Made by a program: the position numbers and the translations under genes. 64,000 nt of DNA, taken from the NCBI GenBank assembly GCA_018896215.1, contig JAHINB010000013.1, positions 17,946 to 81,945 on the forward strand, read 5' to 3'. This DNA comes from Patescibacteria group bacterium. GTDB taxonomy: Bacteria > Patescibacteriota > WWE3 > 0-14-0-20-40-13. The notes under the pieces are model-generated. The model ran no database searches and was not told the origin of the DNA. It saw only the letters and a program-made list of their open reading frames with translations. Shown piece after piece: positions 6,426-56,636 of the stretch (position 1 is its first letter; each line of letters opens with the position of its first letter).

Positions 6426-7697
6426 CTAACTGTTTTTACGGGTGACACCCCTAAAGTGGTGTTTTGGGGTGTCACCCGAAAATCCAAATATCTTCTTTGC
6501 TTTATTAATCCCACTTATTAGTGCATCTATATCCTCTTTTGTATTATAGATATACAAACTTACCCTAACTGAACTTGGTATATCCAACGCCGTGTGTAGT
6601 GGCATAGCGCAGTGGTGACCCGACCTAACCGCAACCCCAACCGAGTCTAAAACACTGGCTAAATCATGGGAGTGCACCCCTGGCAGGTTAAACGCCACAA
6701 TTCCAACCCCGTTTTCTGCTTTTTGGTTCCCGTATAGTAATAGCCCTAATCGCCCTAACATTTCTAATAAGTATTCTGTATTCCCCCCCACCTTCCCCCT
6801 CAACTTCTCCAACCCATAGGAGTTTAGGTAATCCACTGCCACCCCAAGCCCAATCACTCCCGCGATATTTGGCGTTCCGGCTTCAAATTTATTGGGAACA
6901 ATATCCCAAACAGCGTGATCTTGATAAACTTCAGTAATCATACCCCCGCCAAATTTAACAGGCTCAAGTGTTTTTAGTAATTCTCGTTTTCCCCAAAGCA
7001 CTCCAACTCCAGTTGGCCCTAGCATTTTATGCGCCGAAAAAGCATAAAAGTCGCATCCTAAAGATTGCACATTAACTGGCAGGTGCCCCACCGCCTGCGC
7101 CCCATCGACTACTACTAAACAATTGGGATTTGTCGTTTTGACAAGTTTGACTAAATCTTTAATCTTAATAATTTCTCCAGTGACATTGGAAGCGTGGGTA
7201 ATTGCTAAAGCATCCACTTTTTGAGAGAGTATTTTTTTAGCTTCAGAATAATCTAGTAAACCGCCTTTAGTAACCGGAATATAGATCAGCTGACAATTTT
7301 TTTGTGTTGCCAACTGTTGCCAAGGTACAAGGTTGGAGTGATGTTCTAGTTCCGATAAAACAATTGTTGATTCTTCTTTTAATATTTGACCAACTAATTG
7401 AGAAGCCGTATTTAATGATTCTGTTGCTCCACTGGTAAAGATCACTTCTTCGGGAACAACTGCTCCAATTAAACCTGCAACCTTTTTTCTAGCTTCTTCA
7501 AACAATAAAGTTGATTCCTCGCTTAATGTATGAATTCCTCGATGGATATTGGAATTATGTTTTTGATAATAGTTAACAACGGCATCAATAACTTGCTGTG
7601 GCTTTTGCGTTGTAGCAGCATTGTCCAAATAAGCAAGTTTGTGACCGTTGATTTTGCGATTTAAAATTCTGAAATCCTTTTTGGTATTAATTAACAT
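6426..7697 (-). CDS. sufS: cysteine desulfurase SufS (class V aminotransferase)
   Basis: PLP-lysine SAHK motif and the group-II active-site loop RSGHHCA. The last ~17 codons (FSGDTPKHHFRGVTRKNS) and the stop codon are supplied by a palindromic repeat element (see repeats). Confidence 0.85.
   Translation of the reverse strand: MLINTKKDFRILNRKINGHKLAYLDNAATTQKPQQVIDAVVNYYQKHNSNIHRGIHTLSEESTLLFEEARKKVAGLIGAVVPEEVIFTSGATESLNTASQLVGQILKEESTIVLSELEHHSNLVPWQQLATQKNCQLIYIPVTKGGLLDYSEAKKILSQKVDALAITHASNVTGEIIKIKDLVKLVKTTNPNCLVVVDGAQAVGHLPVNVQSLGCDFYAFSAHKMLGPTGVGVLWGKRELLKTLEPVKFGGGMITEVYQDHAVWDIVPNKFEAGTPNIAGVIGLGVAVDYLNSYGLEKLRGKVGGNTEYLLEMLGRLGLLLYGNQKAENGVGIVAFNLPGVHSHDLASVLDSVGVAVRSGHHCAMPLHTALDIPSSVRVSLYIYNTKEDIDALISGINKAKKIFGFSGDTPKHHFRGVTRKNS
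6439..6478. repeat. IR-A palindromic element copy 1 (CGGGTGACACCCC ... GGGGTGTCACCCG)
   Basis: 13-nt inverted arms separated by 14 nt, at the sufS 3' end / sufU 5' junction. It translates to ..SGDTP..GVTRK.. Confidence 0.65.
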
Positions 7698-8191
7698 CAG
7701 TTTTCTAAAAACCCAGAGGTGATTAATTGTTCGGCGTCTATGTGAGATAAACCGCGAGATTCCATGTAGTAGATTTCGTCTTCGCTTACTTTTCCAATTG
7801 TAACCCCATGACTGGCTTTAACTTTAGCATTTTTAATTTCCAGCGATGGTATAGATTTAACAAACACTTCCTCTCCTACTAAAAGATTCTTTTGAGAAAG
7901 ATGGGTGTCGGTTCCAATTGCATTTGTGTTGACAATAAGACACCCATTAAAGTACAGCTTTGCCTTATCATGCAATACAACCTTGATATCAACTCGACCT
8001 TTGGTATTAATCCCTATGTGATTTAACACGATATTGATATTCCTTTCGGTATTTCCCGTTAAGAGAAATCTACCGGTGACACTGATCTCGGATTGATCTC
8101 CAATTAAATTTACCAACATGGAGGTATCCTCATTTTTTAGGACGAGTTCTTTACTCTCACTCATATTTAATTTTATTGTTTTTGTCTTCAT
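7697..8191 (-). CDS. sufD: SufD/SufB-like Fe-S assembly protein, short form
   Basis: 164 aa covering only the C-terminal beta-helix region, with the typical tail YYMESRGLS..AEQLITSGFL. Confidence 0.55.
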   Translation of the reverse strand: MKTKTIKLNMSESKELVLKNEDTSMLVNLIGDQSEISVTGRFLLTGNTERNINIVLNHIGINTKGRVDIKVVLHDKAKLYFNGCLIVNTNAIGTDTHLSQKNLLVGEEVFVKSIPSLEIKNAKVKASHGVTIGKVSEDEIYYMESRGLSHIDAEQLITSGFLEN

Positions 8192-8202
8192 TTTCGTCTT
8201 TT

Positions 8203-8252
8203 CGGGAGACTCCCCAAAAACAGTTTCTAATGCCTTTAAGGGGAGTCTCCCG
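8203..8252. repeat. IR-B palindromic element (CGGGAGACTCCCC ... GGGGAGTCTCCCG)
   Basis: 13-nt inverted arms separated by 24 nt, in the divergent sufD-ybaK intergenic region. The arm differs from IR-A at 2 positions. Confidence 0.6.
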
Positions 8253-8337
8253 GAAAAATTCTAAGATTTTGTTCCCCTTTTATCATAGATAACCGTCTAT
8301 ATATTAACATGAATTTTTACTATGGTAAACTTACACA

Positions 8338-8805
8338 ATGACACAAACACTTTTAGATAAAATTGTAAACTTTCTTGACCACGAGAAAATAAATTACCAA
8401 TTGACAATTCACGAACCGGTCAGAACTAGCGAAGAAGCAGCCAAGTTGCGGGGAGTTCCCCTATCATCTGGAGCCAAAGCCATGGTAGCCAAATGCAAAA
8501 GCAAATACTACCTTTTTGTTCTCCGCGCCAACACCAAGTTGGACTGGAAAAAAGTCAAGGTTATTCTTAACAATAGCGATGCCCATTTGGCACCGATTGA
8601 GGAAGCAGAAAAAATAACCGGAGTCCAAATTGGAGCAGTCGCTCCCTTTGGCAATCTGATGGGTTTACCAACTTACTTTGACAAAAAATTACTACAAAAT
8701 ATTGATGTTAATTTTAATGCCGGACTCCGAACTCACTCTATCAACATGAAAACCGTAGATCTCGTAACTCTCGTCAAACCAATCGTGGAAGATTTCTCCG
8801 GATGA
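8338..8805 (+). CDS. ybaK: YbaK/ProX-family aminoacyl-tRNA deacylase (Cys-tRNA(Pro) editing)
   Basis: 155 aa with a YbaK-like core (GAKAMVAKCKSKYYLFVLRANTKLDWKK...GAVAPFG). It is divergent from the suf genes around it. Confidence 0.65.
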   Translation: MTQTLLDKIVNFLDHEKINYQLTIHEPVRTSEEAAKLRGVPLSSGAKAMVAKCKSKYYLFVLRANTKLDWKKVKVILNNSDAHLAPIEEAEKITGVQIGAVAPFGNLMGLPTYFDKKLLQNIDVNFNAGLRTHSINMKTVDLVTLVKPIVEDFSG

Positions 8806-8810
8806 AATAT

Positions 8811-10178
8811 CTATCCGATACTCCCCCCCATTTCTAACTCCACTAATCTATTTAATTCCACCGCATATTCCATAGGAAGTTCTTTAGCTATAGGCTCAAT
8901 AAACCCCGATGCCACAAGGCTTTTGGCTTGTTCCTTGGATAAACCCCGTGACATTAAATAATAAAGTTTACTATCATCTATATTACTGACTGACGCTTCA
9001 TGTCCAATTTCTACATTTTTGCTTTCTATCTGCATTGTGGGATAGGTGTTGGTTTGCGAATTGGGCGAAAGCAGCAGGGCATCGCAAACTACATTTACTT
9101 TGGCATTTTTGATATGGGGAGGAACCTTTACCATTCCTCTATAAGTTGCAATTCCAGTTTCTTTTGAGATTGATTTTGAGATTATATTTGAGGAGGTATT
9201 ATTTGCTAGGTGATACACTTTACCCCCCGCATCTTGTGTTTGCCCTGCTTTCGCGTAGGCAAGCGAGAGTATTTCTCCTTTTGCCCCATCCCCTTTTAAG
9301 TAGATCGAGGGGTACTTCATAGTAACCTTTGATCCCAAATTGCAATCCACCCATTCCATTACACCGCCTTTCTCCACAAACGCTCTTTTAGTCACTAAAT
9401 TATAAACATCATTACTCCAATTTTGAATTGTGGTATAGCGAACCCTTGCGCCCTCCATAACAAATATCTCCACAACAGCAGCATGCAAAGAAGCCGAAGC
9501 ATAAACTGGAGCAGTACAACCTTCCACATAGCTTACAAAGGAATTTTTGTCCGCGATGATGAGAGTTCTCTCAAACTGCCCCATGTTGCGCTCGTTAATT
9601 CTAAAGTAAGTCTGAAGTGGAAGTTTCACTTTGACATTTGGCGGAATATAAATAAAAGAACCTCCGCTCCAAACAGCACTATTTAACGACGCGAATTTAT
9701 TATCGGCTGGGGGAACCGCTTTACCAAAATACTTCTTAAAAATCTCTGGGTGCTTTTGTAAAGCCGAGTCAGTGTCCAAAAAAATCACACCCTTTTGTTC
9801 TAGTTCTTTTTTAAGTGAGCCGTAAACTACCTCAGATTCAAATTGCGCTTTGACTCCCGAAAGATATTCTCTTTCGGCTTGGGGAATCCCCAACCGTTCA
9901 AAAGTATTTTTTATTTGTTCGGGGACTTCTTGCCAGGAGTGTTTTTGACTATCCTGCGGTTTAACATAATAGTAAAGTTCCTTAAAATTTATCGCCGATA
10001 AGTCCGGACCCCAAGCGGGCATTTTCTTTTGACAAAATAATTCGTATGCTCTAATCCTAAAGTCAAACATCCATTGAGGTTCTTTTTTTGTGGTTGAGAT
10101 ATAGCTAACAATCTCTCGTGACAATCCCCGTGGTGATTTGTAAATTGGAGTGGTTTTTGTCCTAAATGTGGTATCCAT
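8811..10178 (-). CDS. sufB: Fe-S cluster assembly protein SufB
   Basis: 455 aa with the conserved C-terminus [24 protein letters not shown]. Confidence 0.85.
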
Positions 10179-10899
10179 TGTTTTCTATCTCTTCTGCTAA
10201 CTTACTATTTCCACTTTGGACAATTGTTCCGTTTATCATTACATGGACAAAATCAGGTTTTAAAATTTTTAAGATTCGTGGGTAATGGGTAATTATAACA
10301 ACTCCAGTGTTCTTAAATGTTTTGATTTTCTCAAATATTGTTTTTTGTGCGCCAATATCTAAACCGCTGTCAATCTCATCCAAAATTGCATATTTAGGGT
10401 TCAAAACTGCCATTTGCAAAATTTCGCCTTTCTTTTTTTCGCCTCCGCTTGCACCCTCGTTTAAATTTCTTTCGGTAAATTCCTTTGCCATTCCCAACCT
10501 TTCCAGGTGACTCATTAATAATGTTCTAAATTTAATTGGGGGCAAATTGATACCAGCGATACTACCGTATGAGAGACGCAAAAATGATTCTAAGGAAACT
10601 CCGGGAACCTCGACTGGGTATTGAAAGGCTAAAAACAAGCCTAGCCTTGCTCGCGCGGTTGCATCAAGATTTAATAAACAAGTTTGTTTCTGACGAAATA
10701 GATCTTTCCCGTCAAGAGAAACTGATCCCTTTGTAACTGTAATTAGGGGATTACCAATAAGCGTTGTTGCCAAGGTGCTTTTTCCTGAACCATTTGGTCC
10801 CATAAGAGCATGAATTTCCCCACGGTTGATGTTGAGACTCACCCCTTTAAGGATTTCTTTTTCTCCAATTTTAGCGTACAGATTATTTATCTTTAGCAT
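10162..10899 (-). CDS. sufC: Fe-S cluster assembly ATPase SufC
   Basis: Walker [11 protein letters not shown], signature SGGEKK and Walker [11 protein letters not shown]. Confidence 0.85.
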
Positions 10900-10911
10900 A
10901 ATTCTTAATCT

Positions 10912-11175
10912 CTAATCAGCCACGGGACATTTGCACTCACCACAACCACAAGTACATTGAGCATCGTAATAGACTTCCCTTCCTTTTTTAATTCTTTTAA
11001 GTAAACCCGTTTTTGCAAGTTCCATTAAATGGTACGAAACCGTAGGTTGTGTCAATTTAAAATGGGACACAACCTCGGATACTGTTTTAGATTTTCCGCT
11101 TTGCACAAATTCGTAGATTTTAGATCTTGAATTATCCGAAATAGCTTTAAAGCAAGCCAAGCATTTTTTATTCAT
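10912..11175 (-). CDS. ArsR/SmtB-family winged-helix regulator with C-terminal Cys cluster (SufR-like)
   Basis: HTH SEVVSHFKLTQPTVSYHLMELAKTGLL plus a C-terminal CTCGCGECKC. It is the first gene of the suf cluster. Confidence 0.55.
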   Translation of the reverse strand: MNKKCLACFKAISDNSRSKIYEFVQSGKSKTVSEVVSHFKLTQPTVSYHLMELAKTGLLKRIKKGREVYYDAQCTCGCGECKCPVAD

Positions 11176-11270
11176 AACAAGATTAAAGAAAAATATTTCT
11201 ATTAATTTCCCCGACTAATGTCGGGGGCGTTACATATTTCCGAGCGCGGAAATCTATATTTTTTAAATAG
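11173..11270. repeat. copy of the dispersed structured leader repeat ('E-family')
   Basis: CATAACAAGATTAAAGAA.. then hairpin CCCCGAC-taat-GTCGGGG, then GCGTTACATA, then hairpin TTTCC-gagcgc-GGAAA, then TCTAT. It abuts the start codon of the ArsR-like gene and is near-identical in architecture to the copies inside the ribosomal operon. Confidence 0.6.
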
Positions 11271-11337
11271 AAACCCATCTATATATTAATCTGTTTGGAT
11301 AAAATAGTCAACAAGTGAGCGCTGTTGCAAATCTTCT

Positions 11338-11808
11338 TTACCTTTTGTTTTTGATGCCTTCAATCCGCCTAAAGATTTGCTGATCGGGATATTTTCCTAC
11401 AAGCATTCGGGAAAGCTGATTGTAGCTAGTAATGTCGTTATTCTTTTTAGCAAAGACCGTTCCGGCGTTTTTAATTTGCTCAATAGTCGAACGGTACGAG
11501 CTTTCGCTAAAAGAAAAAATTGGCAAAGGCAAATAGCTTATTCCCTGCCCTAGACATGCCTGCCTCTTTAAGGAATCTGCCCTAAGCTGATTTTGGAATT
11601 TTTCGGGAGTTTGCATTGCTTCTATCTGCTTGTAATGCTGCGGACCCTGAAATTCTATGGCAACTCCCAGTTGTGGGTAGTACCTGTCAATCTCAAGACC
11701 ATTAGTCCACAAGGGACGGGTATTATCTAGAGTCTTAAACCCTTTAAGGTAGTAGTCCAAAATTGTCTTGGCTAATTGTTCGAACAAGGAAACCGTAGTT
11801 ATTTGCAT
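11338..11808 (-). CDS. hypothetical protein, possible PD-(D/E)xK / DUF559-like nuclease fold
   Basis: 156 aa. LEIDRYYPQLGVAIEFQGPQHY resembles the D...(E/Q)xDG..H core of Vsr/DUF559-like endonucleases. Weak. Confidence 0.3.
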   Translation of the reverse strand: MQITTVSLFEQLAKTILDYYLKGFKTLDNTRPLWTNGLEIDRYYPQLGVAIEFQGPQHYKQIEAMQTPEKFQNQLRADSLKRQACLGQGISYLPLPIFSFSESSYRSTIEQIKNAGTVFAKKNNDITSYNQLSRMLVGKYPDQQIFRRIEGIKNKR

Positions 11809-11832
11809 AGTATTAATGGCTGTGCCACGTTT

Positions 11833-11943
11833 ATCTTAGCGATTTAGAATTGGTATCGTGTTCGCGTGATGCTCCGCCTTCGGCGGATCAAACGCGACCA
11901 TCGTAATCTCTAAGCTTCCCGATTAAATCGGGATCGCTAAGAT
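11833..11943 (-). ncRNA. candidate structured RNA element 3' of tRNA-Pro (function unknown)
   Basis: An 11-bp long-range stem (ATCTTAGCGAT at 11833-11843 pairs with ATCGCTAAGAT at 11933-11943). It encloses the hairpins CCGCC-UUCG-GGCGG and CCCGATT-AA-ATCGGG and a CGCGT...ACGCG stem. No ORF. Confidence 0.3.
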
Positions 11944-11949
11944 ATTACG

Positions 11950-12025
11950 TGGTCGGGGATGCCGGGCTCGAACCGGCGACCTCACGCACCCCATGCGTGC
12001 GCGCTACCAACTGCGCCAATCCCCG
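11950..12025 (-). tRNA. tRNA-Pro (anticodon GGG)
   Basis: Cloverleaf read by hand: acceptor CGGGGAT/ATCCCCG, U8, D-arm GCGC-AGTTGGTA-GCGC, anticodon stem CACGC/GCGTG with loop ATGGGGT, T-arm GCCGG-TTCGAGC-CCGGC, then A-CCA encoded. Confidence 0.75.
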
Positions 12026-12262
12026 CTACACTCTATCCTTTAAAAACCGTCTACCAAAACCAGTCTTAAAATACTGCTCTCTTTTTAAAGCCTTATACTT
12101 ATCTAAACAAGCCTCATAATATACTAGCGTTAAAGGTGCCCGAGACTTAGTCGCCTCAACCAAACCTTTGTTATGCATTTCTACTCTATTTTGCAAATCC
12201 TCTGTATATCCAACATAGTATTTCTCATCAATCTTGCTTTTTAAAACATAGGTGTAATGCAT
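12026..12262 (-). CDS. GIY-YIG nuclease-domain protein
   Basis: 78 aa with YTYVL...YYVGYTEDLQNRVEMHN (GIY-YIG core). Its stop codon abuts the tRNA-Pro 5' end. Confidence 0.65.
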   Translation of the reverse strand: MHYTYVLKSKIDEKYYVGYTEDLQNRVEMHNKGLVEATKSRAPLTLVYYEACLDKYKALKREQYFKTGFGRRFLKDRV

Positions 12263-12336
12263 ATGCTACCAACTGCCCTGCCCGCAACGCCTTCGCAAGC
12301 TTGGCTTGCGTGGCGGGCGTGGCGCCAATCCCCGCT
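12262..12336. repeat. partial direct duplication of the tRNA-Pro 5' half
   Basis: GCTACCAACTGC (12264-12275) and GCGCCAATCCCCGCTA (12321-12336) repeat tRNA segments 12003-12014 and 12013-12028. Together they bracket the GIY-YIG ORF. Confidence 0.7.
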
Positions 12337-12426
12337 AGAAAATGTTTCCTTGCGTCCTGAGCCTGTCGAAGGACAATTCCTATTCTATCCTTTTGCCTCC
12401 ACATTTTCCAGACCCGCTTTTCTTGT

Positions 12427-12450
12427 CATAGGGTCTGACCCTTAAACAAA
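12427..12450. repeat. GGGTC-N-GACCC boundary palindrome, inverted-orientation copy
   Basis: TTTGTTTAAGGGTCAGACCCTATG on the minus strand matches TTTGTCTAAGGGTCAGACCCTAAAACA at 15.86 and 18.76 kb. Confidence 0.55.
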
Positions 12451-12495
12451 ATATTCCTCATTTTAAAAAAGTCCTTCTGTTGTTATACTAAAAGT

Positions 12496-13002
12496 ATGTT
12501 AACAAACCAAATGCATCCCGATCAAAAAGTTGGAGTTTTTGTGGATGTCTCCAACATGTACTACAGCGCCAAAAATCTTCACAATTCAAAGGTAGACTTT
12601 GGGCAGGTTTTACAAATGGTACTGGGCAAGCGCAAACTCATCCGCGCCTTTGCCTATGTTATAAGAGCCAACATTGAACAGGAAAAGACTTTTTTTGAAG
12701 CGCTAGAAAAACGCGGCTTCGAAGTTCGTATTAAAGACTTGCAAGTTTTTTTGGGTGGCGAAAAAAAAGGTGATTGGGATGTAGGGCTTTGCATGGATGC
12801 TGTAAGACTCATCCCCAAAATAGACGCTCTAGTTTTAATTTCGGGAGATGGGGATTATACCGATTTGTTGGATTATGCCCGTTCGCAAGGAGTAAGGTGC
12901 GAAGTGGCTTCGTTTGGACGCAACACCTCTGGAAAATTAATCGAGCGCGCCGACAGTTTTTTTGATTTAGACTACTTTGCCAAAAATATCCTTTTAGCCT
13001 AG
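12496..13002 (+). CDS. NYN-domain (LabA-like, PIN-like) protein
   Basis: VGVFVDVSNMYYS...GDWDVGLCMDA...LISGDGDYTDL are the acidic-residue signature of NYN/DUF88. Confidence 0.65.
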   Translation: MLTNQMHPDQKVGVFVDVSNMYYSAKNLHNSKVDFGQVLQMVLGKRKLIRAFAYVIRANIEQEKTFFEALEKRGFEVRIKDLQVFLGGEKKGDWDVGLCMDAVRLIPKIDALVLISGDGDYTDLLDYARSQGVRCEVASFGRNTSGKLIERADSFFDLDYFAKNILLA

Positions 13003-13023
13003 AGTATTTTTTAAATAGCTAAG

Positions 13024-14778
13024 ATGAGAAGCTTTTACTTCCCAAAACAACTTATCATTCGGGCAGGGATTTTAGCTTTTGCCTTTACGGCAATTTCGTT
13101 TTTTGCTTACCACCTTTCGTTTTTAAACAGAGTAATTCCCAATGTTTACTTGGACGGTAAACGCATCAGCGGGATATCAATTGTTAAATTGCAACAAGAT
13201 CTTGGGTATCTTGATACTTATGATCCCGTAATTTCTTTTAGGGACGAGCCCTCAAAACAAGATTTTGTCGTTAAGGCATCGGATATTGGACTTTATTATA
13301 ATTCTCAAGAAACTATTAAAAAAGCGTTTTTACTTGGCAGAACCAGCAATTTTATTCAAGATAACTTAACAAAGTTTAACCTACTATTTAAGGGATATAA
13401 CCTGACCCCAGAGTATCTTGTAAATCAAGATCTTTTGGATTTAAAAATAAGCCAAATCCAAACTAAAGTAGAATCCCCTTTTTACAACGCTTACTTCTAC
13501 ATCTCTAATAACAAGCTCGAGATAGAGAAAGAAGTTTCGGGATTACGGCTTAACAAAAACAAATTAAAAGCTAGGATTTTAGAAAAATATTTAAGTTTTA
13601 ATTTTGTAAACGAGCCTCTTCCTATGGAACAATTTACTCCGGAGGTAACAACAGAAAACTTAACCCCTGTGAAAGAATTCGTCCAAAATATAGTTTTTAA
13701 TCCACCAGCGCTATTTTTTGAGAAAAAAGTTTATAAATTAACTCCCGAAAACATTTTAAAATCTGTTTTTCTAAAAATGGAATCGGGGGCAAACAAAGCC
13801 ACCGTTACCGTAAACACCGAAACGCTCTCCCCCATAATTGCAACAATTGCCGAAGAAATAAACACCCCACCTAAAGGAGAGATATTTTTAATGGAAAACG
13901 GCAAGGTAAGTAGCTTTAGACCAGCATCCAATGGCGTCGTAATTGATGAAGAAAAACTTTATAAAGATTTGGCAAGCGCGATTTTAGTAGATGACCCCAA
14001 GGCTAAAACTGTTACCATTCCGGTTCGCGAAACCAAAGTTTTAGCTAATAATGAATACGGTATAAAAGAATTGCTGGGAGAAGGCATATCTAAATTCGAA
14101 GGGTCTATAAGTGGCAGGGTTTTTAATATTGCTCTTGCTTCATCCAACCTCAACGGAACCTTAATTCCCCCTGGAGAGACATTCTCTTTTAATAAATCGG
14201 TAGGCGAAATTGATGCTACCCACGGGTTTACTTCTGCCTACATTATTTCCAAAGGGAGAACAGTACTGGGAGAAGGTGGCGGGGTTTGTCAAGTTTCTAC
14301 CACGCTTTTTCGCGCTGTCTTAAATTCGGGACTTCCAGTAGTTACTCGAGCCGCTCACGCCTATAGAGTTTCATATTACGAACAGGACGCTCCGGTAGGT
14401 CTTGATGCCACAATTTATCAGCCCACAGTGGATTTTAAATTTAAGAATGACACCGCAGGCTATATTTTGTTAACTGCTTCCGTTGACCAGAAAAACCTGA
14501 CTATGAATTTTAAGATTTATGGAACAAGTGATGGGAGAACCATAGAAATTACTAAGCCGATTATTACTTCCCAAACTCCGCCACCGCCAGCAGTTTATGA
14601 GGAAACTGATACATTACTTGTGGGACAAACTAAGCAGGTGGATTGGTCGGCTTGGGGAGCAAGTGTCAAATTTAGTCGTAAAGTGGTAAAAAATGAAAAA
14701 ATAATAATTGACGAAGAGTATATTAGCAATTATAGACCTTGGCGAGCTGTGTACTTGGTTGGTACCAAAGAACCTTAA
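13024..14778 (+). CDS. VanW-family protein (N-terminal TM anchor)
   Basis: 584 aa. C-terminal VanW core GFTSAYIISKGRTVLGEGGGVCQVSTTLFRAV...YYEQDAPVGLDATIY. Confidence 0.7.
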   Translation: MRSFYFPKQLIIRAGILAFAFTAISFFAYHLSFLNRVIPNVYLDGKRISGISIVKLQQDLGYLDTYDPVISFRDEPSKQDFVVKASDIGLYYNSQETIKKAFLLGRTSNFIQDNLTKFNLLFKGYNLTPEYLVNQDLLDLKISQIQTKVESPFYNAYFYISNNKLEIEKEVSGLRLNKNKLKARILEKYLSFNFVNEPLPMEQFTPEVTTENLTPVKEFVQNIVFNPPALFFEKKVYKLTPENILKSVFLKMESGANKATVTVNTETLSPIIATIAEEINTPPKGEIFLMENGKVSSFRPASNGVVIDEEKLYKDLASAILVDDPKAKTVTIPVRETKVLANNEYGIKELLGEGISKFEGSISGRVFNIALASSNLNGTLIPPGETFSFNKSVGEIDATHGFTSAYIISKGRTVLGEGGGVCQVSTTLFRAVLNSGLPVVTRAAHAYRVSYYEQDAPVGLDATIYQPTVDFKFKNDTAGYILLTASVDQKNLTMNFKIYGTSDGRTIEITKPIITSQTPPPPAVYEETDTLLVGQTKQVDWSAWGASVKFSRKVVKNEKIIIDEEYISNYRPWRAVYLVGTKEP

Positions 14779-14782
14779 TCCC

Positions 14783-15196
14783 TTATCTTTCTTCGTAAAT
14801 TACCTCAATAACTACAGATAACTCCCCTCCCCCACTAGTTAAAATAATCGACAAGGTTTTATTGTCTTTTTTGTATACAAGAGGTTTTTCTATTGTGTAT
14901 CCCAAATTTCTCGCCTGCGAAATATAATAATTGGCAATTTTGGATAAAGGATCGTAAGACTCAAACAAAAGATCGTAGCCTTGGAGTGTTTTGTTTTGGC
15001 TGATAAATAAGGCTCCGGGATAAACAATGAAATCTTTAGGCAATGAGCTTAAAAACCCAGTTGAAACCCCGGCAACTTTGCTGGTTCCCGGTGTAATAAC
15101 AGTTTCGATGTTGGTAAATTTTTGGTAAAGGATAAAAGAAAAAACAAAGACGATAAATCCTGCAATTAACTTTTTAAATGCTACTTTCATTGCCAC
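14783..15196 (-). CDS. hypothetical membrane-anchored protein
   Basis: 137 aa with one N-terminal TM helix (LIAGFIVFVFSFILY). Confidence 0.35.
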   Translation of the reverse strand: MAMKVAFKKLIAGFIVFVFSFILYQKFTNIETVITPGTSKVAGVSTGFLSSLPKDFIVYPGALFISQNKTLQGYDLLFESYDPLSKIANYYISQARNLGYTIEKPLVYKKDNKTLSIILTSGGGELSVVIEVIYEER

Positions 15197-15217
15197 TAGT
15201 ATATCACTTTTGCCTTT

Positions 15218-15240
15218 TTAGGATCCGACCCTAAAACAGG
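15218..15240. repeat. variant boundary palindrome TTAGGATCCGACCCTAAAACAGG
   Basis: Same TAAAACA tail and GACCC half-site as the GGGTCAGACCC copies. It supplies the stop codon (TTA on minus) of the 15218 gene. Confidence 0.45.
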
Positions 15241-15523
15241 AGTACAAATCTAGCAAATACTCTGCAATAACTTTGTCTTCGAATTTGCTATTGATGATTT
15301 CCCACGCTTTTTCATACAATTCCGGTGACACTGTTTTTACTTTCTCCACAAGAGAAGTTGCCAATCCCCTTTCGCCTTTCGCCATGTAATAGGCGCTACG
15401 ATAAATATTCCCCAACGCATCTGCTTGTAGATTTTTCTCACGGGAGACTCCTTTCTCACGGGTGACACCCCATAAAGCGTTTGTATTTTGTACCGGGGTG
15501 TCACCCGAATAGATTTCTTTCAT
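15218..15523 (-). CDS. hypothetical protein whose 5' coding region is built from palindromic repeat elements
   Basis: Start taken at the ATG that forms an ATGA overlap with the upstream gene stop (MKEIYSGDTP...). Codons 5-25 are encoded by the IR-A and IR-B repeats. Confidence 0.3.
   Translation of the reverse strand: MKEIYSGDTPVQNTNALWGVTREKGVSREKNLQADALGNIYRSAYYMAKGERGLATSLVEKVKTVSPELYEKAWEIINSKFEDKVIAEYLLDLYSCFRVGS
15441..15510. repeat. IR-A palindromic element copy 2, with adjacent partial IR-B arm
   Basis: CGGGAGACTCC (15441-15451) followed by CGGGTGACACCCC (15459-15471), a 23-nt spacer, then GGGGTGTCACCCG (15495-15507). Copy 1 is at 6439-6478. Confidence 0.65.
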
Positions 15524-15861: not shown

Positions 15862-15882
15862 TAAGGGTCAGACCCTAAAACA
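15862..15882. repeat. boundary palindrome TAAGGGTCAGACCCTAAAACA
   Basis: Identical 21-mer at 18764-18784. A 5-1-5 inverted repeat GGGTC-A-GACCC. Confidence 0.65.
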
Positions 15883-17785: not shown

Positions 17786-18766
17786 GAAATTCCTCCAAAA
17801 TTCGCGATTAATTCCAAAGTAGCTGACCTAATAGCGTTAATTGACTCCAACCGCCTCTTTATTAATTCCAAAAACATTCCCCCAATCGTACAACAGAATA
17901 TCGACCGCGTTAGTCTTTTAAAAAGTGCTTTATATTCCGCAAAAATTGAGGGCAACGAACTCCAAGAACACAACTTTAATTTTTATCCCAAAGATCAAAA
18001 GAAACTAGAAGTTTTAAACATCCAAAAAGCCATAAATTACATCAATAGCGAGATTACAGGTACAAAACCAGTGATTTTAGAAACTATTCTTACACTGCAA
18101 AAGATATCTATGGAAAACATAGTTCCAAATGCAGGAAAAATTAGAAGCGACAATTTGGCTATTTTTAATTCCGCTGGAGTTGCAGTTTATTTTGCCCCTC
18201 CCCCATCGGAACTTTCTATTTTTTTAGAGAAATTGATAAACTATATAAACTCATCAAGTGCAGAATCACCAATTATTGTTGCCTTAATAGCTCATCTAAT
18301 TCTAGAAAAAATCCACCCCTTTCAAGACGGCAATGGTAGGGTTGGAAGACTCTTAATTTATGCGGTTCTAAAAGCCAAAAGCTACAATTTTGGAGTCCCT
18401 GTTGTGTTAGAAGAAGAAATAAACAAAAGACGAGACGAATATTACTATCACCTAGACCAAGGATACAAAAATGTAGAGGACTATTTGTTTTTTATGCTCG
18501 AAATCTTTTATAACCAAACAGAAACTGTTAAAACCCAGCTAACTTATATTCCACAAGAAAACGATGTGGTTTTGTCTTTGGCGCCAAGGCAAGGAGAAAT
18601 TTACAACATTATTAAAGACCATCAACTGGTATCTCTTGATTTTATTCATAGGAGATTCGTAACAGTTCCAGCAAGAACCCTTCGTTACGATCTAAAGAAA
18701 TTACAAGAAAAGGGTTTGATCAACAAAACATCTTCCACTCGAGGAGCTTTCTACAGAGTTGTCTAA
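17783..18766 (+). CDS. Fic/Doc-family protein (Fido, adenylyltransferase-like)
   Basis: Canonical Fic motif HPFQDGNGRVGRLL. The C-terminus is winged-helix-like. Its stop TAA is the first 3 nt of the boundary palindrome. Confidence 0.8.
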   Translation: MEIPPKFAINSKVADLIALIDSNRLFINSKNIPPIVQQNIDRVSLLKSALYSAKIEGNELQEHNFNFYPKDQKKLEVLNIQKAINYINSEITGTKPVILETILTLQKISMENIVPNAGKIRSDNLAIFNSAGVAVYFAPPPSELSIFLEKLINYINSSSAESPIIVALIAHLILEKIHPFQDGNGRVGRLLIYAVLKAKSYNFGVPVVLEEEINKRRDEYYYHLDQGYKNVEDYLFFMLEIFYNQTETVKTQLTYIPQENDVVLSLAPRQGEIYNIIKDHQLVSLDFIHRRFVTVPARTLRYDLKKLQEKGLINKTSSTRGAFYRVV

Positions 18767-18784
18767 GGGTCAGACCCTAAAACA
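18764..18784. repeat. boundary palindrome TAAGGGTCAGACCCTAAAACA
   Basis: Exact copy of 15862-15882. Confidence 0.65.
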
Positions 18785-35161: not shown

Positions 35162-35220
35162 GAGTTGATTTTACCTCACAAACCGCTATTTACGAAACGG
35201 TATTTGCGCACCTATCAATT

Positions 35221-35249
35221 CGGGTACTACCCGAATCGGGTAGTACCCG
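35221..35249. repeat. perfect 29-nt palindrome
   Basis: CGGGTACTACCCGA-A-TCGGGTAGTACCCG, within the GC-rich insert between adk and the ybaB-like gene. Confidence 0.6.
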
Positions 35250-35454
35250 ATAATATCTTGCCACTAAAGGGTTCTTTTGAATACAGTGTTTCGTGTTGTT
35301 ATAGCAAGGAAAATTTACTATCAATTGCAACTGGATGCAGATGGAGTGGGGCACCTCTTAAACAACAAAAAGAAAAAGAAAAGGCGCTGGAGTCTCTCAT
35401 GATACATCAAGAGAAAATACCCCCAGCACCTTCCGCAACTTCCCCCCCACCGCA

Positions 35455-47617: not shown

Positions 47618-49726
47618 TTATACTTTTCTTCCTTCGGCAATTTTTGTTGCCACCGATGCCGGAACCTCCTGATAATGACTGGGCTCAATATTAAAACTTC
47701 CTCTTCCTTGAGTAATGCTTCGCAGGGTTGTGGAATAACCAAACAACTCGGCAAGCGGAACCAACGTTTTTATAATCGCCAAGTTTCCTTTGCTTTCGGT
47801 ACCCTCTATTCTACCACGCTTTGAGCTAATGTCACCTATGACATCTCCCATGAAGTTTTCGGGTACCGAAACCTCTACCTTCATGATAGGCTCTAAAAGT
47901 GCTGGGCTGGCTTTTCTCGCGGCATCTTTAAATGCCTCTATGGCTGCTATTTTAAACGCAATTTCCGAAGAGTCAACCTCGTGAAAAGATCCGTCATATA
48001 ACGCCACCAACACATCAACTACCGGATACCCGGCAACAACGCCACTTTCTAAAGCTTCTTTGACTCCTTTTTCCACCGCTGGAATATACTCTTTGGGAAT
48101 TGAGCCACCTACAATCTCGTTCACAAATTTAAAACCTTCTCCAGCTTCTCGCGGTTCCAAACGCAACCAAACATGACCATATTGACCCCGCCCACCTGAC
48201 TGCCTAATATACTTACCTTCTTGCTCCACAATTTTTTTGATGGTCTCTTTAAAGGCAACTTGCGGAGCACCCGTTTCTGCCCCCACCTTAAATTCTCGCT
48301 TCATCCGATCAACAAGAATTTCCAAATGCAATTCGCCCATTCCAGCAATTAAAGTTTGTCCGGTTTCGGGGTTGGATTTTATTTTAAAAGTTGGATCCTC
48401 TTCGGAGAGTTTTTTTAGAGCCATTCCCATTTTTTCTTGGTCTTGCTTTGTTTTTGGCTCGATAGACATAGAAATAACCGGTTCGGGAAAACTAATTGCC
48501 TCAAGTAAAATTGGATTTTCCTCTGAACACAGCGAATCTCCCGTAAAAGTGTTTTTAAGTCCCACAACCGCGGCAATTTCACCAGCTTTGACCTCTTTGA
48601 CATCTTCACGATCGTTGGCATGCATTAAGACAATTCTACTAAATCGTTCTTTTTCGCCACGGGTGGCGTTTAAAACATACGACCCAGCTGTAAGTTTTCC
48701 CGAGTAAGCTCTAAAATAGGTCAGTCTTCCAACATAAGGGTCGGTTTGAACTTTAAAAGCCAATCCCGAAAAATGCTCCGTAATATCAGGTCTTCTTTCT
48801 TCTTCGGCTCCTGTTTTAGGATTCTTGCCTTTAACGGGAGGAAGTTCTAATGGAGATGGGAGAAGATTAATTACCTGATCTAACAAGCTTTTTACAATTA
48901 CGCCTCGTCCATCTCCTCCAAAAACCGGAAAAACCTCGCCACTTAGAGTAGCTTTTCTAACCGCTCGCATAAGCTCGCTTTCTGATATCTCTTTACCGTT
49001 GAGATACTTATCCATAACTTCGTCATCAAAGTCAGCAACTCTTTCCAACATTTCTCCTCTCCATTTTTTTGCTTCTTCGATTAAATTTGCGGGAATTTCT
49101 TCTTCCACTAAATCTTCTTGCAAATAGTCAGTATAGGTATAAGTCTTCATCCGAATTAAATCGATAACACCATGGAGGTCTTTTTCAAATCCCAGGGGCA
49201 AAACAATAGGAAACGCTTTAGAGCTTAGCCTTTCCCTAATTGATTCCAAACTCCTGTAAAAATCTCCGCCAATTTGGTTAATTTTATTAATAAAACAGAT
49301 TCGGGGAACATGGTATTTGCTGGCTTGTCGCCAAACAGTTTCCGATTGTGGCTCCACTCCCATCTTTCCGTCAAAAACAACTATTGCTCCATCAAGAACC
49401 CTTAGAGAGCGTTCCACCTCGGCGGTAAAATCCACATGCCCTGGAGTATCAATAATGTTGATTCGGTAAACAGCACTTTTTTCTCCAAAATACCTGCGCC
49501 AAAAACAGGTAGTAGCGGCAGAGGTGATAGTGATTCCCCTTTCTCGTTCTTGTTCCATCCAATCCATTTGGGTGTCACCTAAATCGATCTTGCCAATTTT
49601 GTGAGTTTTTCCGGTATGAAACAAAACCGCCTCGGTAGTGGTTGTTTTGCCCGCGTCAATGTGGGCAATTATTCCAATATTTCTAATTCTATCTAGGGGT
49701 ATTTCCCCAAATTCTTTGTCTTGCAT
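47618..49726 (-). CDS. fusA: elongation factor G
   Basis: [21 protein letters not shown] and the EF-G domains IV/V. Start at the ATG for [19 protein letters not shown] (the longer ORF prefix looks non-coding). Confidence 0.95.
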
Positions 49727-50055
49727 GATCTTACAACAAAAAACTCCTATACGGAGTTTCCTCTTTTTAGCAAATTTTGCAACTAATAGCAACGGGTAAT
49801 CACAATCGGTTTGACACCGCACAATTTCCCCTTGACAAGAGTCGTATCTTATAGTAAAAACTGCTCACCTGTCAACTACTTGGAGAGAGCCTGTAAAAAG
49901 GGCTTCCCCTGCGCCTTTTGCGTCTTATCCCTGTCATAAAAATCAGTAAACGAAAAATGAATCGTGTTTCCCTCACTCTGTGGGGGAGATTCAGGCACCT
50001 TAAAAACTGAATAGCGAATTTCATCTTTTATCAAAGAAAGGAAAGGAGGTGTCCC

Positions 50056-50700
50056 TTGTTTGATTTAATAAAGGGAGCACTATGGGCGATGGCAGGAGCT
50101 TTCGGGGACATCTTCCTGCTGGTATTCAATGTCTTGTCCCCATTGTTATTTGACCCGCTAAAAGCGGGAGCGCTGGAGCTCCGTGGCAATGAGTCTGAAA
50201 AAGAGGCTCTAGAAAAGATTGCCACGGCGTTCAAGAGGAACAGGCGCCTTCGCTGGAAAGCTCTGGATCCCGAAAGGGATCCTGCTATGGTTGGTCTGTA
50301 TGTACTGACCAACAATCTCCGTTTCCTCTTTGAGCTCCTAGCAACACAGGTCTTGCTAGAGAGCTCCGCAGGAGGAGAAAGTATAACGCTGATCAAGCAT
50401 GTACGGTTCGGCTGGCTCCTGCGCCTTTTTAGTTTTGAAGGCTACGCGGAGCCAACCCCACTGACTGACATCACTCCCGCGAGAGGTGGCGATGTCACTT
50501 ATCTGCCGTGGAAGATCATCCATGGATCCTCCGGAGAGGTTGTGGAGACCGGTCTTCTCGTAAGGCTGGTCAATTTCCTGACCCAAAAGAGGGTAGTTCA
50601 ATTCTTGACCGCGTCGGGGGAAGCCGACATGTGGCAATTCCCAAACGCGGAGAGATCATGGCGCAAGCTGATGTGGTTGGTCGAAGTCACTACTCAATAA
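50056..50700 (+). CDS. island gene 1: hypothetical protein with N-terminal hydrophobic segment
   Basis: TTG start 6 nt after AAGGAGG. 214 aa. G+C-rich codons. No recognisable motif. Confidence 0.45.
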   Translation: MFDLIKGALWAMAGAFGDIFLLVFNVLSPLLFDPLKAGALELRGNESEKEALEKIATAFKRNRRLRWKALDPERDPAMVGLYVLTNNLRFLFELLATQVLLESSAGGESITLIKHVRFGWLLRLFSFEGYAEPTPLTDITPARGGDVTYLPWKIIHGSSGEVVETGLLVRLVNFLTQKRVVQFLTASGEADMWQFPNAERSWRKLMWLVEVTTQ

Positions 50701-50717
50701 AGGAAAGGAGAAATATC

Positions 50718-50993
50718 GTGTTTAGCAACAGTGTTCTTGCGGTTGCTGGGGTCGGCGCTGTGGCTTTGGCCGTCGCTGCGATCATCATCCTCTGGTCCTC
50801 GAAAGGCGAGGGGATCGGAGGGGTCGCGGGGGCGGTGGTGGCTGCTATGGCGCTGTTGTTGGGGCTTGGGGTTGTGGCGGCGACTGCCTTCGGCATTGCC
50901 TCCCATTCCTCAAGCTATTTCAGTATGTTTGATGGACTGGCGCAGTCATTCGGCCAGTTCGTCAGTAGAGTTGTCCAAATCTTCACCCCCTAA
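50718..50993 (+). CDS. island gene 2: 91-aa Gly/Ala-rich two-TM-helix protein (pilin/VirB2-TrbC-like or holin-like)
   Basis: GTG start 8 nt after AGGAG. Two hydrophobic helices (LAVAGVGAVALAVAAIIIL and VAAMALLLGLGVVAATAFGIA) separated by SSKGEGIGG. Confidence 0.45.
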   Translation: MFSNSVLAVAGVGAVALAVAAIIILWSSKGEGIGGVAGAVVAAMALLLGLGVVAATAFGIASHSSSYFSMFDGLAQSFGQFVSRVVQIFTP

Positions 50994-51003
50994 CGGGGCA
51001 GGA

Positions 51004-52044
51004 GGGAACGAGATGAAAATGAAACGGTTTCTGAAAACCGTCGCTCCCCTCGCTTCCCTCCTGCTTCTGGCGGGATGTACAGGAGGTGAGGGGGACGGTG
51101 TAGGAAAGATGGTCGCAGGAGTGATAGGGGAGCTTAAGGGGATCAGTGATCTGATTAAGTTCGGGATCATCGGTCCTCGAGTTGAGTTACCCCTTTCAGT
51201 TTGGGCAGGGATTGGCGGTCTCGCCTCCCTACTCATCTTAATCGGTTTCATTTTCACCGCGTGGATGTCCGCAAGGGCCTACGCGCGGCGCCAGCCTGTA
51301 GAGGACTGGGGAATCGGTTGGTTTCTGCTTCTGATGATGACCGGAATCTGGATTTTCTTATCCGGTTATCTGTTATCGGGGGCGTACCTAGAGTTCCCTG
51401 ATCTTGGGTTGGCGGATTTCGTTGTGAGGGGGATGGGGCTGATGGATCTTGCCGGGGGAGTATTGCTTCTCATGGCGGGTTTGGTCCTATTTTCCCTACG
51501 GATGATCATGTGGTCAATGTTGCTCGTGGCCGCCCTGTTTGTTCCAATCATTGCGGTAATCGCGCAATGGACAAACAGGCGTGGATTGATTGCGTACGCT
51601 TCAGTGCTGTTTTCTTACATCGTGTACGCGATGTACCCGTTCATCCTGGCGTTCGTCCTCAACACAGATCTTGGTCTACCCACCATTCCCCTGTTGGGAG
51701 GAGGCGGACTGATAAAAGCGGCAGTTCTAGTAATTACTGCCGGAGCGCTTCTCTTCTTCTTCCTGTTTGGTCCTTTGCTTCTGCGAAAAGTGTTCACGGC
51801 GATCGCGCCGAAAGAAACCGTTCTGCAAAGGGAGCCAAACAGGCTAGAGCCGGAGGAGATCGTTGCTTTGGTAATGTCCGCCCTTGCCCTCTTAACCGGG
51901 GGCGGACTGGAAGCGGCTCTAGCGCACATCTTCGGGCCTCTCTCCAAGAGGCTTGGAGTTGATGTTGGTGGAGTTGTCGATGGAGTGAAAAACGCCACCC
52001 GCAGTGGCAACACCGCAGCGGCAAATCCAGAACCCCCGGCGTAG
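51004..52044 (+). CDS. island gene 3: polytopic membrane lipoprotein (VirB6/TrbL-like topology)
   Basis: GGAGG RBS. Signal peptide with lipobox LLLAGC. About seven further hydrophobic helices and a hydrophilic C-terminal tail. Confidence 0.5.
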   Translation, partial: GNEMKMKRFLKTVAPLASLLLLAGCTGGEGDGVGKMVAGVIGELKGISDLIKFGIIGPRVELPLSVWAGIGGLASLLILIGFIFTAWMSARAYARRQPVEDWGIGWFLLLMMTGIWIFLSGYLLSGAYLEFPDLGLADFVVRGMGLMDLAGGVLLLMAGLVLFSLRMIMWSMLLVAALFVPIIAVIAQWTNRRGLIAYASVLFSYIVYAMYPFILAFVLNTDLGLPTIPLLGGGGLIKAAVLVITAGALLFFFLFGPLLLRKVFTAIAPKETVLQREPNRLEPEEIVALVMSALALLTGGGLEAALAHIFGPLSKRLGVDVGGVVDGVKNATRSGNTAAANPEPPA

Positions 52045-52063
52045 CGCGGGGAGGGAGGAAACC

Positions 52064-54010: not shown

Positions 54011-54045
54011 TCGGTCCATCAAGCAAACCCCCAAAGGAGGGCGGA

Positions 54046-56609: not shown

Positions 56610-56636
56610 CCTTCCAACTTCCCATGGCGCCACTGG

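Follow-up and report, generated by a model that had tools for sequence, protein, structure and literature searches.

How do the C-terminus of the cysteine desulfurase SufS and the N-terminus of an unrelated hypothetical protein come to contain the same peptide, SGDTP..GVTR? The window analysed here, a stretch of 64,000 nucleotides in which both genes lie, stems from a tiny-genome groundwater bacterium, a member of the Patescibacteria near WWE3, and is 100% identical to the Patescibacteria MAG GCA_022012835.1. Genomes of Patescibacteria (CPR) are considered streamlined, with little mobile DNA; CPR proteins often contain lineage-specific insertions whose origin is unknown. A first-pass annotation had attributed the shared peptide to a MITE- or REP-like palindrome that inserts at gene boundaries and is read through in frame. 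Repeats of this kind, roughly 50 nt in length, would provide a concrete source of such insertions.

A family of hairpin repeats

Perfect 13-bp inverted repeats are present at three loci of the window, and a partial arm precedes the third, all at the positions reported by the first-pass annotation (Table 1). The pattern CGGGWGACWCCCC matches six times in the window, compared with 0.10 matches expected, and six or more matches were reached in none of 100 shuffles. IR-A and IR-B had been described as sister elements. Their relationship is borne out, and the loops join them more closely: those of all three copies are homologous to each other and share the non-palindromic sequence ~TAAAGGCATTnGAAnnCTGTTTT, and IR-B is inverted relative to both IR-A copies. 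The repeats thus form a single family with a defined orientation.

The core of the element, 46-50 nt in length (about 56-60 nt when the flanks are counted), consists of two fully complementary 13-nt arms of the form C/G-GGG-NNNNN-CCC-C/G around a shared loop of 20-24 nt; the inverted repeats account for more than half of the element. A T-rich flank, usually TTTTn, precedes the core and an A-rich flank, usually nAAAA, follows it. The hairpins are GC-rich and reside in an AT-rich genome of about 39% GC.

Table 1. Hairpin copies in the window and the genes that they enter
Feature	Position	Strand	Remarks
sufS (cysteine desulfurase), host of copy 1	6426..7697	-	PF00266; source name 'SufS family cysteine desulfurase'
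Added codons and stop of sufS	6426..6479	-	17 codons SGDTPKHHFRGVTRKNS, then TAG 6426-6428
Copy 1 (IR-A)	6439..6478	+	A-type arms CGGGTGACACCCC 6439-6451 / GGGGTGTCACCCG 6466-6478; 14-nt loop
Copy 2 (IR-B)	8203..8252	-	B-type arms CGGGAGACTCCCC 8203-8215 / GGGGAGTCTCCCG 8240-8252; 24-nt loop
Hypothetical 101-aa gene, copy 3 in its 5' end	15218..15523	-	ATG overlaps the upstream DUF5674 stop (ATGA)
Solo B-type arm with leader	15434..15451	+	TTTCTCA, then CGGGAGACTCC (15441-15451); read directly from the sequence
Copy 3 (IR-A)	15459..15507	+	A-type arms CGGGTGACACCCC 15459-15471 / GGGGTGTCACCCG 15495-15507; 23-nt loop

In copy 1, whose strand was assigned from the loop, the T-rich and A-rich flanks lengthen the stem to about 6434-6483, and the predicted RNA fold is -29.6 to -30 kcal/mol (z -4.6 to -5.6). 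Its loop exists in two alleles, 14 nt in the window and 23 nt in conspecific strains, and the 9-nt difference preserves the reading frame. Copy 2 (predicted fold -32 to -34 kcal/mol) is intergenic and separates two divergent genes, a short SufBD-core gene (7697-8191, minus strand) and a tRNA-editing-domain gene (8338-8805, plus strand); one C>T change occurs in its left arm in strains L021 and L025. The short SufBD gene was considered as a recent duplicate of sufB, which was rejected; it is a diverged paralogue. Copy 3 (predicted fold -29.5 kcal/mol) is preceded by the solo arm with its leader, which forms an 18-nt direct repeat with 15452-15469 (TTTCTCA followed by CGGGTGACACC), translated as GVTREK-GVSREK. 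All three copies are fixed in at least eight independent assemblies of the species, which excludes an assembly artefact.

Covariation of the arms

Arms and non-palindromic loop could be aligned across copies, namely those of sufS, upstream of sufD', the hypothetical gene, upstream of ybeY, pth, dnaX (two), yqeY and contig L005. Four arm types occur, each perfectly complementary to its partner. A- and B-type arms are near-palindromes of the form GGGxy-N-y'x'CCC; C- and D-type arms have no internal symmetry, and the C-type arm, GGGGAGACACCCC, is not self-palindromic yet is the perfect complement of its partner. The symmetry of the arms bears on the proposal that they serve as operators of a dimeric DNA-binding regulator, such as the ArsR/HTH_5 protein whose gene (10912-11175) heads the suf operon. 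Two of the three window copies lie within this operon, the A- and B-type arms display internal dyad symmetry, and 15 of the 25 GGGN5CCC sites of the window are palindromic. The idea that self-palindromic arms are protein half-sites was nevertheless dropped once the non-symmetric C- and D-type arms had been found. Moreover, copies occur in the context of pth, dnaX, yqeY and ybeY, none of which has a part in Fe-S metabolism; such sites are missing from relatives that share the regulator and the operon; and the addition of 17 codons to a gene is atypical of operators, all of which makes this function very improbable.

In the nine-copy alignment 100% of the cells of the 13-bp stem are paired, with compensatory double changes at six of the 13 pairs (12 cells). 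The covariation score was reached in none of 500 shuffles, and in slid controls pairing drops to 32-58%. The predicted RNA folds of the family are very stable (-28 to -34 kcal/mol, z -4.6 to -6.3). Such stems could be functional cis-elements under selection, mRNA or ssDNA stem-loops at gene junctions, and the translation of some copies would then be a side effect. They might, for example, block 3'-5' decay, mark a processing site, modulate translational coupling or bind a protein. Besides the stability and the compensatory changes, this explanation accommodates the precise coincidence of several copies with cistron junctions (sufS/sufU, DUF5674/hypothetical gene, upstream of ybeY and upstream of sufD'), the fixation of all window copies in eight strains, and an orthologous hairpin that a relative has kept with two compensatory changes (see below). 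However, the interiors of pth and dnaX also hold copies, and the suf operons of the relatives L016 and L017, syntenic and with sufB directly followed by sufS, work without the elements. The orientation of the loop relative to transcription of the host gene is mixed, which argues against one strand-specific RNA motif. On either strand a T-run precedes the stem and an A-run comes after it; hence there is no terminator U-run and the hairpins are not intrinsic terminators. A stem of 13 bp is short for an RNase III substrate, and Rfam at the gathering threshold yielded a single tRNA in the window and no family matching the hairpins. On balance, a cis-acting role as the primary explanation appears unlikely.

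The SufS tail and the hypothetical protein

SufS ends with ..KIFGF-SGDTPKHHFRGVTRKNS*. The first-pass annotation had assigned both the last ~17 codons and the stop of sufS to copy 1. This holds for the codons; the stop sits 10 nt past the repeat core, in the flank and outside the palindrome, and is followed 2 nt later by the ATG of sufU (6423). Among 118 SufS homologues from other species, 115 end within two residues of F406, where the element starts, and none shares the element-derived tail; the counter-case named in the first-pass annotation, the same tail in SufS orthologues of unrelated lineages, was thus looked for and not found. By this comparison the tail is an addition and not ancestral sequence, as had been proposed. 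In the AlphaFold2 model of SufS (mean pLDDT 92.5) the last helix comprises residues 387-403, residues 411-423 score below 50, and the tail is predicted to be disordered. Insertion of the element would have destroyed the former stop codon, probably in the context ..GGA TTT TAA, and translation would then have continued through 17 codons to the TAG that adjoins the start of sufU. A 9-residue tail of another SufS protein, P0006, was examined as palindrome-derived and rejected; it arises from an overlap with sufU. The SufS region of P0002/L016 contains only a degenerate GC-rich hairpin, the homology of which to the family is uncertain.

The hypothetical protein begins with MKEIY-SGDTPVQNTNALWGVTREKGVSREK, in which residues 6-22 are encoded by copy 3, and the translations confirm that its start and the end of SufS have the peptide in common. 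In a distant homologue of 80 residues (P0129) the N-terminal segment is absent altogether. Another homologue (P0122, 56% identical) has a diverged hairpin at the orthologous site, with two compensatory pair changes. Comparison of the two sites points to long retention of this hairpin, for which selection on structure would be no worse an explanation than selfish spread.

Copies elsewhere in the species

The sequence sampled from the species of the window amounts to about 93 kb of a genome of roughly 1 Mb. It contains eight fixed loci, one strain-polymorphic copy and one long-loop composite, or about one copy per 10 kb. Contigs L012, L034 and L035 belong to the same species, and the Pth protein P0130 originates from GCA_043812435.1 and GCA_043825695.1, the assemblies of L026 and L022, which are 99.4% identical to the window. 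Six of the about ten loci lie in annotated ORFs, those of sufS, the hypothetical gene, pth (two) and dnaX (two). The peptide SGDTPK..AFRGVTRK is common to SufS, the hypothetical protein and Pth, and related peptides are found in DnaX. In Pth the inserts total more than 40 residues; they are absent from nine CPR homologues and have a low pLDDT within a predicted structure whose core is confident. In DnaX the element supplies 17 residues in the loop of the zinc module, at the exact spot where E. coli DnaX is without 20 residues. In-frame read-through of a dispersed palindrome family is therefore supported by annotated ORFs. Insertion at gene boundaries, as first suggested, applies to the copies at termini and junctions but not to those inside pth and dnaX.

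All copies within ORFs are free of stops in the frame used and preserve the downstream frame; none of the six is out of frame. This observation is relevant to the idea that the elements are not translated at all. In phage T4 gene 60 a gap of 50 nt is bypassed by ribosomes, and yeast mitochondria contain GC-rich 'byp' inserts. By analogy, ribosomes could hop over the hairpins, which resemble these systems in size (46-50 nt), in being GC-rich hairpins of an AT-rich genome and in their location inside essential genes. Were bypass possible, some of the six should be out of frame. The two loop alleles of sufS differ by 9 nt, possible take-off codons are not followed by a stop, and take-off and landing codons that match were not seen. 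Bypass is thus extremely improbable, and plain translation of the copies is favoured.

The strain-polymorphic copy, L012a, stands in place of 244 nt of yqeY; L034 and L035 (99.5% identity) have this gene intact. This gain within the species, the only case of presence versus absence, is a replacement and not a simple insertion, and its source is a single 1.2-kb metagenome contig. No more copies turned up in a further 9 kb and 2.6 kb of flanking sequence from the source contig.

Distribution and signs of mobility

A pattern scan of the GTDB genomes gave three chance matches only, all in high-GC actinobacteria. Among 12 matches in the JGI metagenomes, only L005, L007 and L012 were members of the family, and IMG/VR yielded none. 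As far as these three collections reveal with a pattern that is too narrow for C- and D-type arms, the family is confined to the species of the window and contig L005. A profile of the element peptide (42 columns) shared words with 59 candidates, none with E<=10.

No transposase, RAYT, IS200/IS605 or related autonomous IS was found among the Pfam-annotated genes of the about 93 kb. In the nine aligned copies, for which there was no empty site to compare, no target-site duplication was visible; the flanks are inverted, TTTTn ... nAAAA, and have no direct repeat in common. A clean empty site was not encountered among the loci compared, nor was a REP tag, GTAG or CGTC, beside the stem in the aligned flanks. 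The support for the suggested MITE- or REP-like mobility is only indirect: it comes from the unrelated contexts of the copies, the one strain polymorphism and the absence of elements at orthologous sites, and not from a target-site duplication, a parent transposon or a transposase.

A model for the spread of the hairpins

The explanation that we consider rather probable from these sequence comparisons is that the hairpins are a palindromic element of REP/RPE-like character, dispersed and probably mobile, whose presence in coding DNA is tolerated. Since neither transposase, target duplication, REP tag nor U-run was found, we infer the mechanism of mobilisation, including the act of transposition, its enzyme and a T/A-rich target. 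According to this model the family would have spread as a non-autonomous element, recognized, like REP/REPIN or IS200/IS605-type elements, as a folded single-strand hairpin and not by the sequence of its arms. It would land in T/A-rich sites across the chromosome and persist where it does little harm, between genes, in first or last codons and in protein surface loops. Its survival inside coding DNA would be due to the reading frames, four of the six being open in most copies. The frame in most frequent use encodes a hydrophilic, Gly/Pro/Thr-rich peptide (F-SGDTP-K..-AFRGVTR-K) predicted to be disordered.

A further possibility, which we regard as doubtful, is that the hairpin structure is selected while it is also translated. 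The perfect complementarity maintained through six compensatory pair changes and the orthologous copy retained in the gene of a 56%-identical protein suggest this reading, in which the hairpins would be dual-use elements, provided that selection and not repeated insertion or hairpin-templated repair accounts for them. A minimal CPR genome would then have a structural DNA or RNA signal at its cistron junctions that is at the same time a steady source of new segments in essential proteins, handled perhaps by an unknown structure-specific enzyme; a gene for a small GIY-YIG nuclease is situated nearby. The family makes it possible to ask whether hairpins are kept by selection or by a copying mechanism. 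Annotators should not take such tails and loops as native protein sequence.

Comparison with known systems

GC clusters and byps of yeast mitochondria are GC-rich palindromic elements. Repetitive hairpin-forming elements of sponges and coding palindromes of nematomorphs have been reported from mitochondrial genomes (PMC2800124, PMC6649704). The hairpins of the window resemble these elements in being GC-rich, in spreading in an AT-rich compact genome and in their occasional location within coding sequence, but the mitochondrial elements are organellar and some are bypassed or far longer, whereas those described here are bacterial.

REPs are imperfect palindromes of 20-40 nt with an unpaired GTAG/CGTC tag; they are mainly extragenic, with intragenic REPs on record notably in replication and repair genes (PMC3733652). 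REPs/REPINs and the present family have in common small hairpin repeats, several co-existing sequence types and the maintenance of stem complementarity. The present family differs in having no tag, a perfect stem and a long conserved loop, about half of its copies are intragenic, and no RAYT, the Y1 transposase that mobilises REPs/REPINs, was seen in the sampled part of the genome.

MITEs can fuse in frame with host ORFs (PMC10969869). Like the Correia/NEMIS, ERIC and BOX elements, the hairpins appear non-autonomous and non-coding, have terminal inverted repeats (perfect 13-nt arms in every copy) and occur in multiple dispersed copies with presence/absence variation. They are, however, much shorter, and neither a visible target-site duplication nor a related full-length IS was present in the sampled part.

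The Rickettsia palindromic elements (RPEs) are repeats of about 100-150 bp, RPE-1 being reported in 44 copies; many copies lie in frame in unrelated, often essential genes and add a conserved peptide at fold-compatible sites (PMC10969869). In the bacterium of the window, too, a short palindromic family in a reduced genome encodes a conserved peptide in frame in unrelated, often essential ORFs, at sites that suit the protein fold. The two families have no sequence similarity, their hosts are Patescibacteria and Alphaproteobacteria, respectively, and the core here is only 46-50 nt with a perfect 13-bp stem. The family, for all its resemblance to RPEs, appears to be hitherto undescribed in Patescibacteria, and it offers a bacterial system outside Rickettsia in which to study how selfish palindromes remodel essential proteins.

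Architecture of the elements

The two IR-A copies, the IR-B copy and a solo arm lie exactly where the first-pass annotation had placed them (see table). A degenerate arm pattern matched six sites in the window, compared with 0.10 expected, and no shuffle equalled six. The loops of the three copies are homologous (consensus approximately TAAAGGCATTnGAAnnCTGTTTT), and as judged by this homology IR-B is inverted relative to both IR-A copies. Most copies are flanked by TTTTn at the left and nAAAA at the right, which lengthens the stem, and the RNA of each copy folds with -28 to -34 kcal/mol (z-scores -4.6 to -6.3). The elements have no U-run, and the order T-run, stem, A-run is found on both strands, which excludes intrinsic terminators.

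Four arm types were distinguished, A (CGGGTGACACCCC), B (CGGGAGACTCCCC), C (GGGGAGACACCCC) and D (GGGGTCGAACCCC), each with a perfectly complementary partner. In a covariation analysis of nine distinct copies, 100% of the cells of the 13-bp stem were paired and 6 of the 13 pairs had changed on both sides (12 cells); the covariation score was matched by none of 500 shuffles, and when the partners were slid by 1-3 columns, only 32-58% of the cells paired. It was considered that each arm might be a protein-binding palindrome of its own (GGGxy-N-y'x'CCC). Since arms C and D show no such symmetry, the conserved feature is the pairing of one arm with the other. The possibility that the arms are operators for the ArsR-type suf regulator was rejected as well, because some arms are not symmetric and copies also occur in pth, dnaX, yqeY and ybeY.

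Species range and further copies

Contig JAKLRK010000007.1 of the Patescibacteria MAG GCA_022012835.1 is 100% identical to the window, and the same three copies occur in at least eight other conspecific assemblies (99.4-99.8% identical; NCBI, ENA, Logan, JGI). Judged by SufS, the closest named relatives belong to candidate division WWE3. Strains differ in the three copies only by the length of the sufS loop (14 or 23 nt, yielding SufS of 423 or 426 residues) and by a single C>T change in an IR-B arm (contigs L021 and L025).

Scanning of metagenomes with the arm pattern yielded the window locus of another strain (L007) and contigs L012 and L005. L012 belongs to the window species: its Pth (P0130) is encoded in GCA_043812435.1 and GCA_043825695.1, and both assemblies include window-like contigs; their contigs L034 and L035 supplied extra copies. 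In total, ~93.5 kb of the species contain eight fixed loci, one polymorphic copy and a long-loop composite, approximately one per 10 kb, in a clustered distribution. A model built from the A and B copies only did not recover the D-arm copies, the membership of which is less certain as it is based on architecture and ~65% loop similarity.

Copies of the family and other features (window positions unless a contig is named)
Feature	Sequence	Position	Loop	Source
IR-A copy 1	CGGGTGACACCCC / reverse complement GGGGTGTCACCCG	6439-6478	14 nt	sequence reading
IR-A copy 2	CGGGTGACACCCC / GGGGTGTCACCCG	15459-15507	23 nt	sequence reading
IR-B	CGGGAGACTCCCC / GGGGAGTCTCCCG	8203-8252	24 nt	sequence reading
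Solo arm	CGGGAGACTCC	15441-15451		sequence reading
Copy directly upstream of ybeY				L034/L035 set
Copy within pth				L034/L035 set
Two copies within dnaX				L034/L035 set
Composite with the same kind of arms, in pth			63 nt	L034/L035 set
Small GC-rich hairpins in frame within pth	CGGGACGA..TCGTCCCG	L034 584-620		
Small GC-rich hairpin in frame within ychF	CGGGTTCGTCCCA-AA-TGGGACGAACCCG	L034 5789-5816		
tRNA-Pro, first 13 nt (- strand)	CGGGGATTGGCGC	12013-12025		
Exact recurrence of these 13 nt	CGGGGATTGGCGC	12322-12334		
GIY-YIG nuclease gene, 78 aa (- strand)		12026-12262		
GC-rich hairpin, second repeat type	..CTGCCCGCAACGC(C)TTCGC..GCG.GGCGGGC..	~12275-12320		
16-nt palindromic motif	TAAGGGTCAGACCCTA	12429-12444, 15862-15877, 18764-18779		
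Perfect GC-cored hairpins without family loop		28858-28889, 35220-35250, L017 5932-5959		
fusA		47618-49822		
GC-rich island		~50000-56650		
SLT + M23 peptidase		53938-55395		
DUF362		56698-57540		

Coding additions

Most copies are open in four of the six frames, TGA shutting one frame per strand. All six copies within ORFs can be read without a stop in their respective frames and leave the frame behind them intact, which contradicts ribosomal bypass; the lengths of the two sufS loop alleles are 9 nt apart. Orientation and frame are shared by the sufS copy, the hypothetical-gene copy and the first pth copy, resulting in F-SGDTP-K..-AF(R/W)GVTR-(K/E); the peptides quoted in the first-pass annotation were correct. 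The dnaX copies are read in other frames or in the opposite orientation.

The proposal that the SufS tail is an addition was borne out: of the 118 homologues compared, all from other species, 112 have their last residue aligned exactly with F406, the point at which the element begins, another three end within two residues of it, and none shares the tail, which the same tail in other lineages would have marked as ancestral. The element was also said to provide both the last codons and the stop of sufS; it provides the codons, but the stop (6426-6428) is 10 nt away from the palindrome core. AlphaFold2 modelled SufS with a pLDDT of 92.5, the last helix spanning residues 387-403 and residues 411-423 scoring below 50. 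In the relative L017, sufS ends with MFRV* and the sufU ATG follows 2 nt further on. When the core and one further base are deleted in silico, the window sequence reads GGA TTT TAA; the ancestral gene may plausibly have ended in ..GF*.

Pth has 216 residues in the window species versus ~160-175 in CPR homologues, and its extra segments coincide with hairpins and have low pLDDT. Compared with E. coli gamma/tau (1xxi_B), the zinc module of DnaX is longer by 20 residues between LNCE and PCGxC, and 17 of these residues (RGRTPKKAPDLSLGFDP) are element sequence. P0129, an 80-residue distant homologue of the hypothetical protein, lacks the N-terminal segment. The coding additions in SufS, Pth, DnaX and the hypothetical protein are thus real additions.

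The SufS of the relative L016 (65% identical) has its own 9-residue tail, PQAPVFENL, past the point aligned with F406. This tail is encoded (L016 11205-11250) by a GC-rich imperfect hairpin, GGGGCACCTCAAGCGCCCG, then TTTTTGAAAA, and the hairpin may represent an element that has decayed at this junction. Given the small hairpins in pth and ychF, several hairpin families appear to colonise the coding DNA of the window species.

Mobility

Mobility is favoured by the unrelated contexts of the copies and by their absence from orthologous sites of relatives, the syntenic suf operons of L016 and L017 being devoid of elements. It is also favoured by a single within-species difference: in L012 (1-185), a C-type copy, which has a loop variant of its own, stands in place of 244 nt of yqeY, a GatB/YqeY-domain gene that is intact in the 99.5% identical L034 (990-1350) and L035. 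Three ~10-nt tandem repeats, GGAATTTAGA / GGAATTTATG / GGGATTTAGG, adjoin this copy. Less in keeping with mobility are the fixation of the three window copies in all strains compared and the failure to find a clean empty site among the compared loci, a target duplication at the copies, or a transposase in the annotated parts of the sampled DNA.

In the WWE3-like L030 (host protein 56% identical), CGGGTTCCACCCC..36 nt..GGAACCCG occupies the junction of the window copy, between the DUF5674 stop and the start of the small gene. Its 9-bp stem differs from that of the window copy by two compensatory pair changes; this may reflect either an old insertion that has kept its stem or a second hit there. 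Such retention, together with fold stability and arm covariation, would also suit a hairpin that functions at cistron junctions as RNA or DNA, a reading that we consider unlikely because copies reside within genes, orientation is mixed and the same operon in relatives lacks them. The earlier interpretation, a MITE/REP-like palindrome that would insert at gene boundaries and be read through in frame, was essentially right, and the phenomenon is broader than stated there.

Other repeats and a GC-rich island

The two tRNA-Pro repeats (region 11950-12445; 0.07 expected) enclose the GIY-YIG gene and the hairpin upstream of it, an arrangement that looks like the insertion of a ~300-nt GIY-YIG cassette at the tRNA gene's 5' end; a GIY-YIG gene of 78 aa is present in the syntenic region of L016 too. 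In pth (L034 641-729), the second repeat type lies within the 63-nt loop belonging to the D-arm element and is translated as ..PPPASLREALRAG.., and L030 has a similar GC-rich hairpin (7027-7082). The 16-nt motif, with three sites versus 0.04 expected, all intergenic and two with the same 22-nt surroundings (GTCTAAGGGTCAGACCCTAAAAC), may be bound by a protein or be associated with promoters. Among the GC-cored hairpins, TAGGGATTATCCCAAA/TTTGGGATAATCCCTA is located after a gene for a product with a SecA-like motif at its C-terminal end, and TCGGGTACTACCCGA is present in two copies; the latter type recurs in a WWE3 relative, as GGGGTACTACCC-TATC-GGGTAGTACCCC, downstream of the FNR-like gene.

IR-B lies in the divergent gap of a lineage-specific insertion between sufB and sufS (7697-8805) that comprises a YbaK-like gene with a tRNA-editing domain, on the opposite strand, and a short, 164-aa SufBD-core gene (profile positions 96-232 only); in L016 and L017 sufS directly follows sufB. 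The GC-rich island (48-56% versus ~39% GC), located between DUF362 and fusA, breaks the rpsL-rpsG / fusA-tuf order. It carries genes on the opposite strand, among them the SLT + M23 peptidase, and its other ORFs have no Pfam match; it is probably acquired DNA.

Relation to known systems

In behaviour, the closest elements are the Rickettsia palindromic elements, which occur as in-frame insertions in numerous unrelated genes, likewise of a reduced genome (PMC10969869); the family shares this in-frame insertion but differs in size and sequence. In structure, the closest are REP/REPINs, intragenic copies of which are on record in replication and repair genes (PMC3733652), but the family lacks the defining REP tag, as it lacks the target duplication typical of MITEs. 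A full-text literature search retrieved no account of such elements in Patescibacteria/CPR. The family is real and new; as an intragenic palindromic repeat it represents a known kind of element, in a lineage in which none had been noted.
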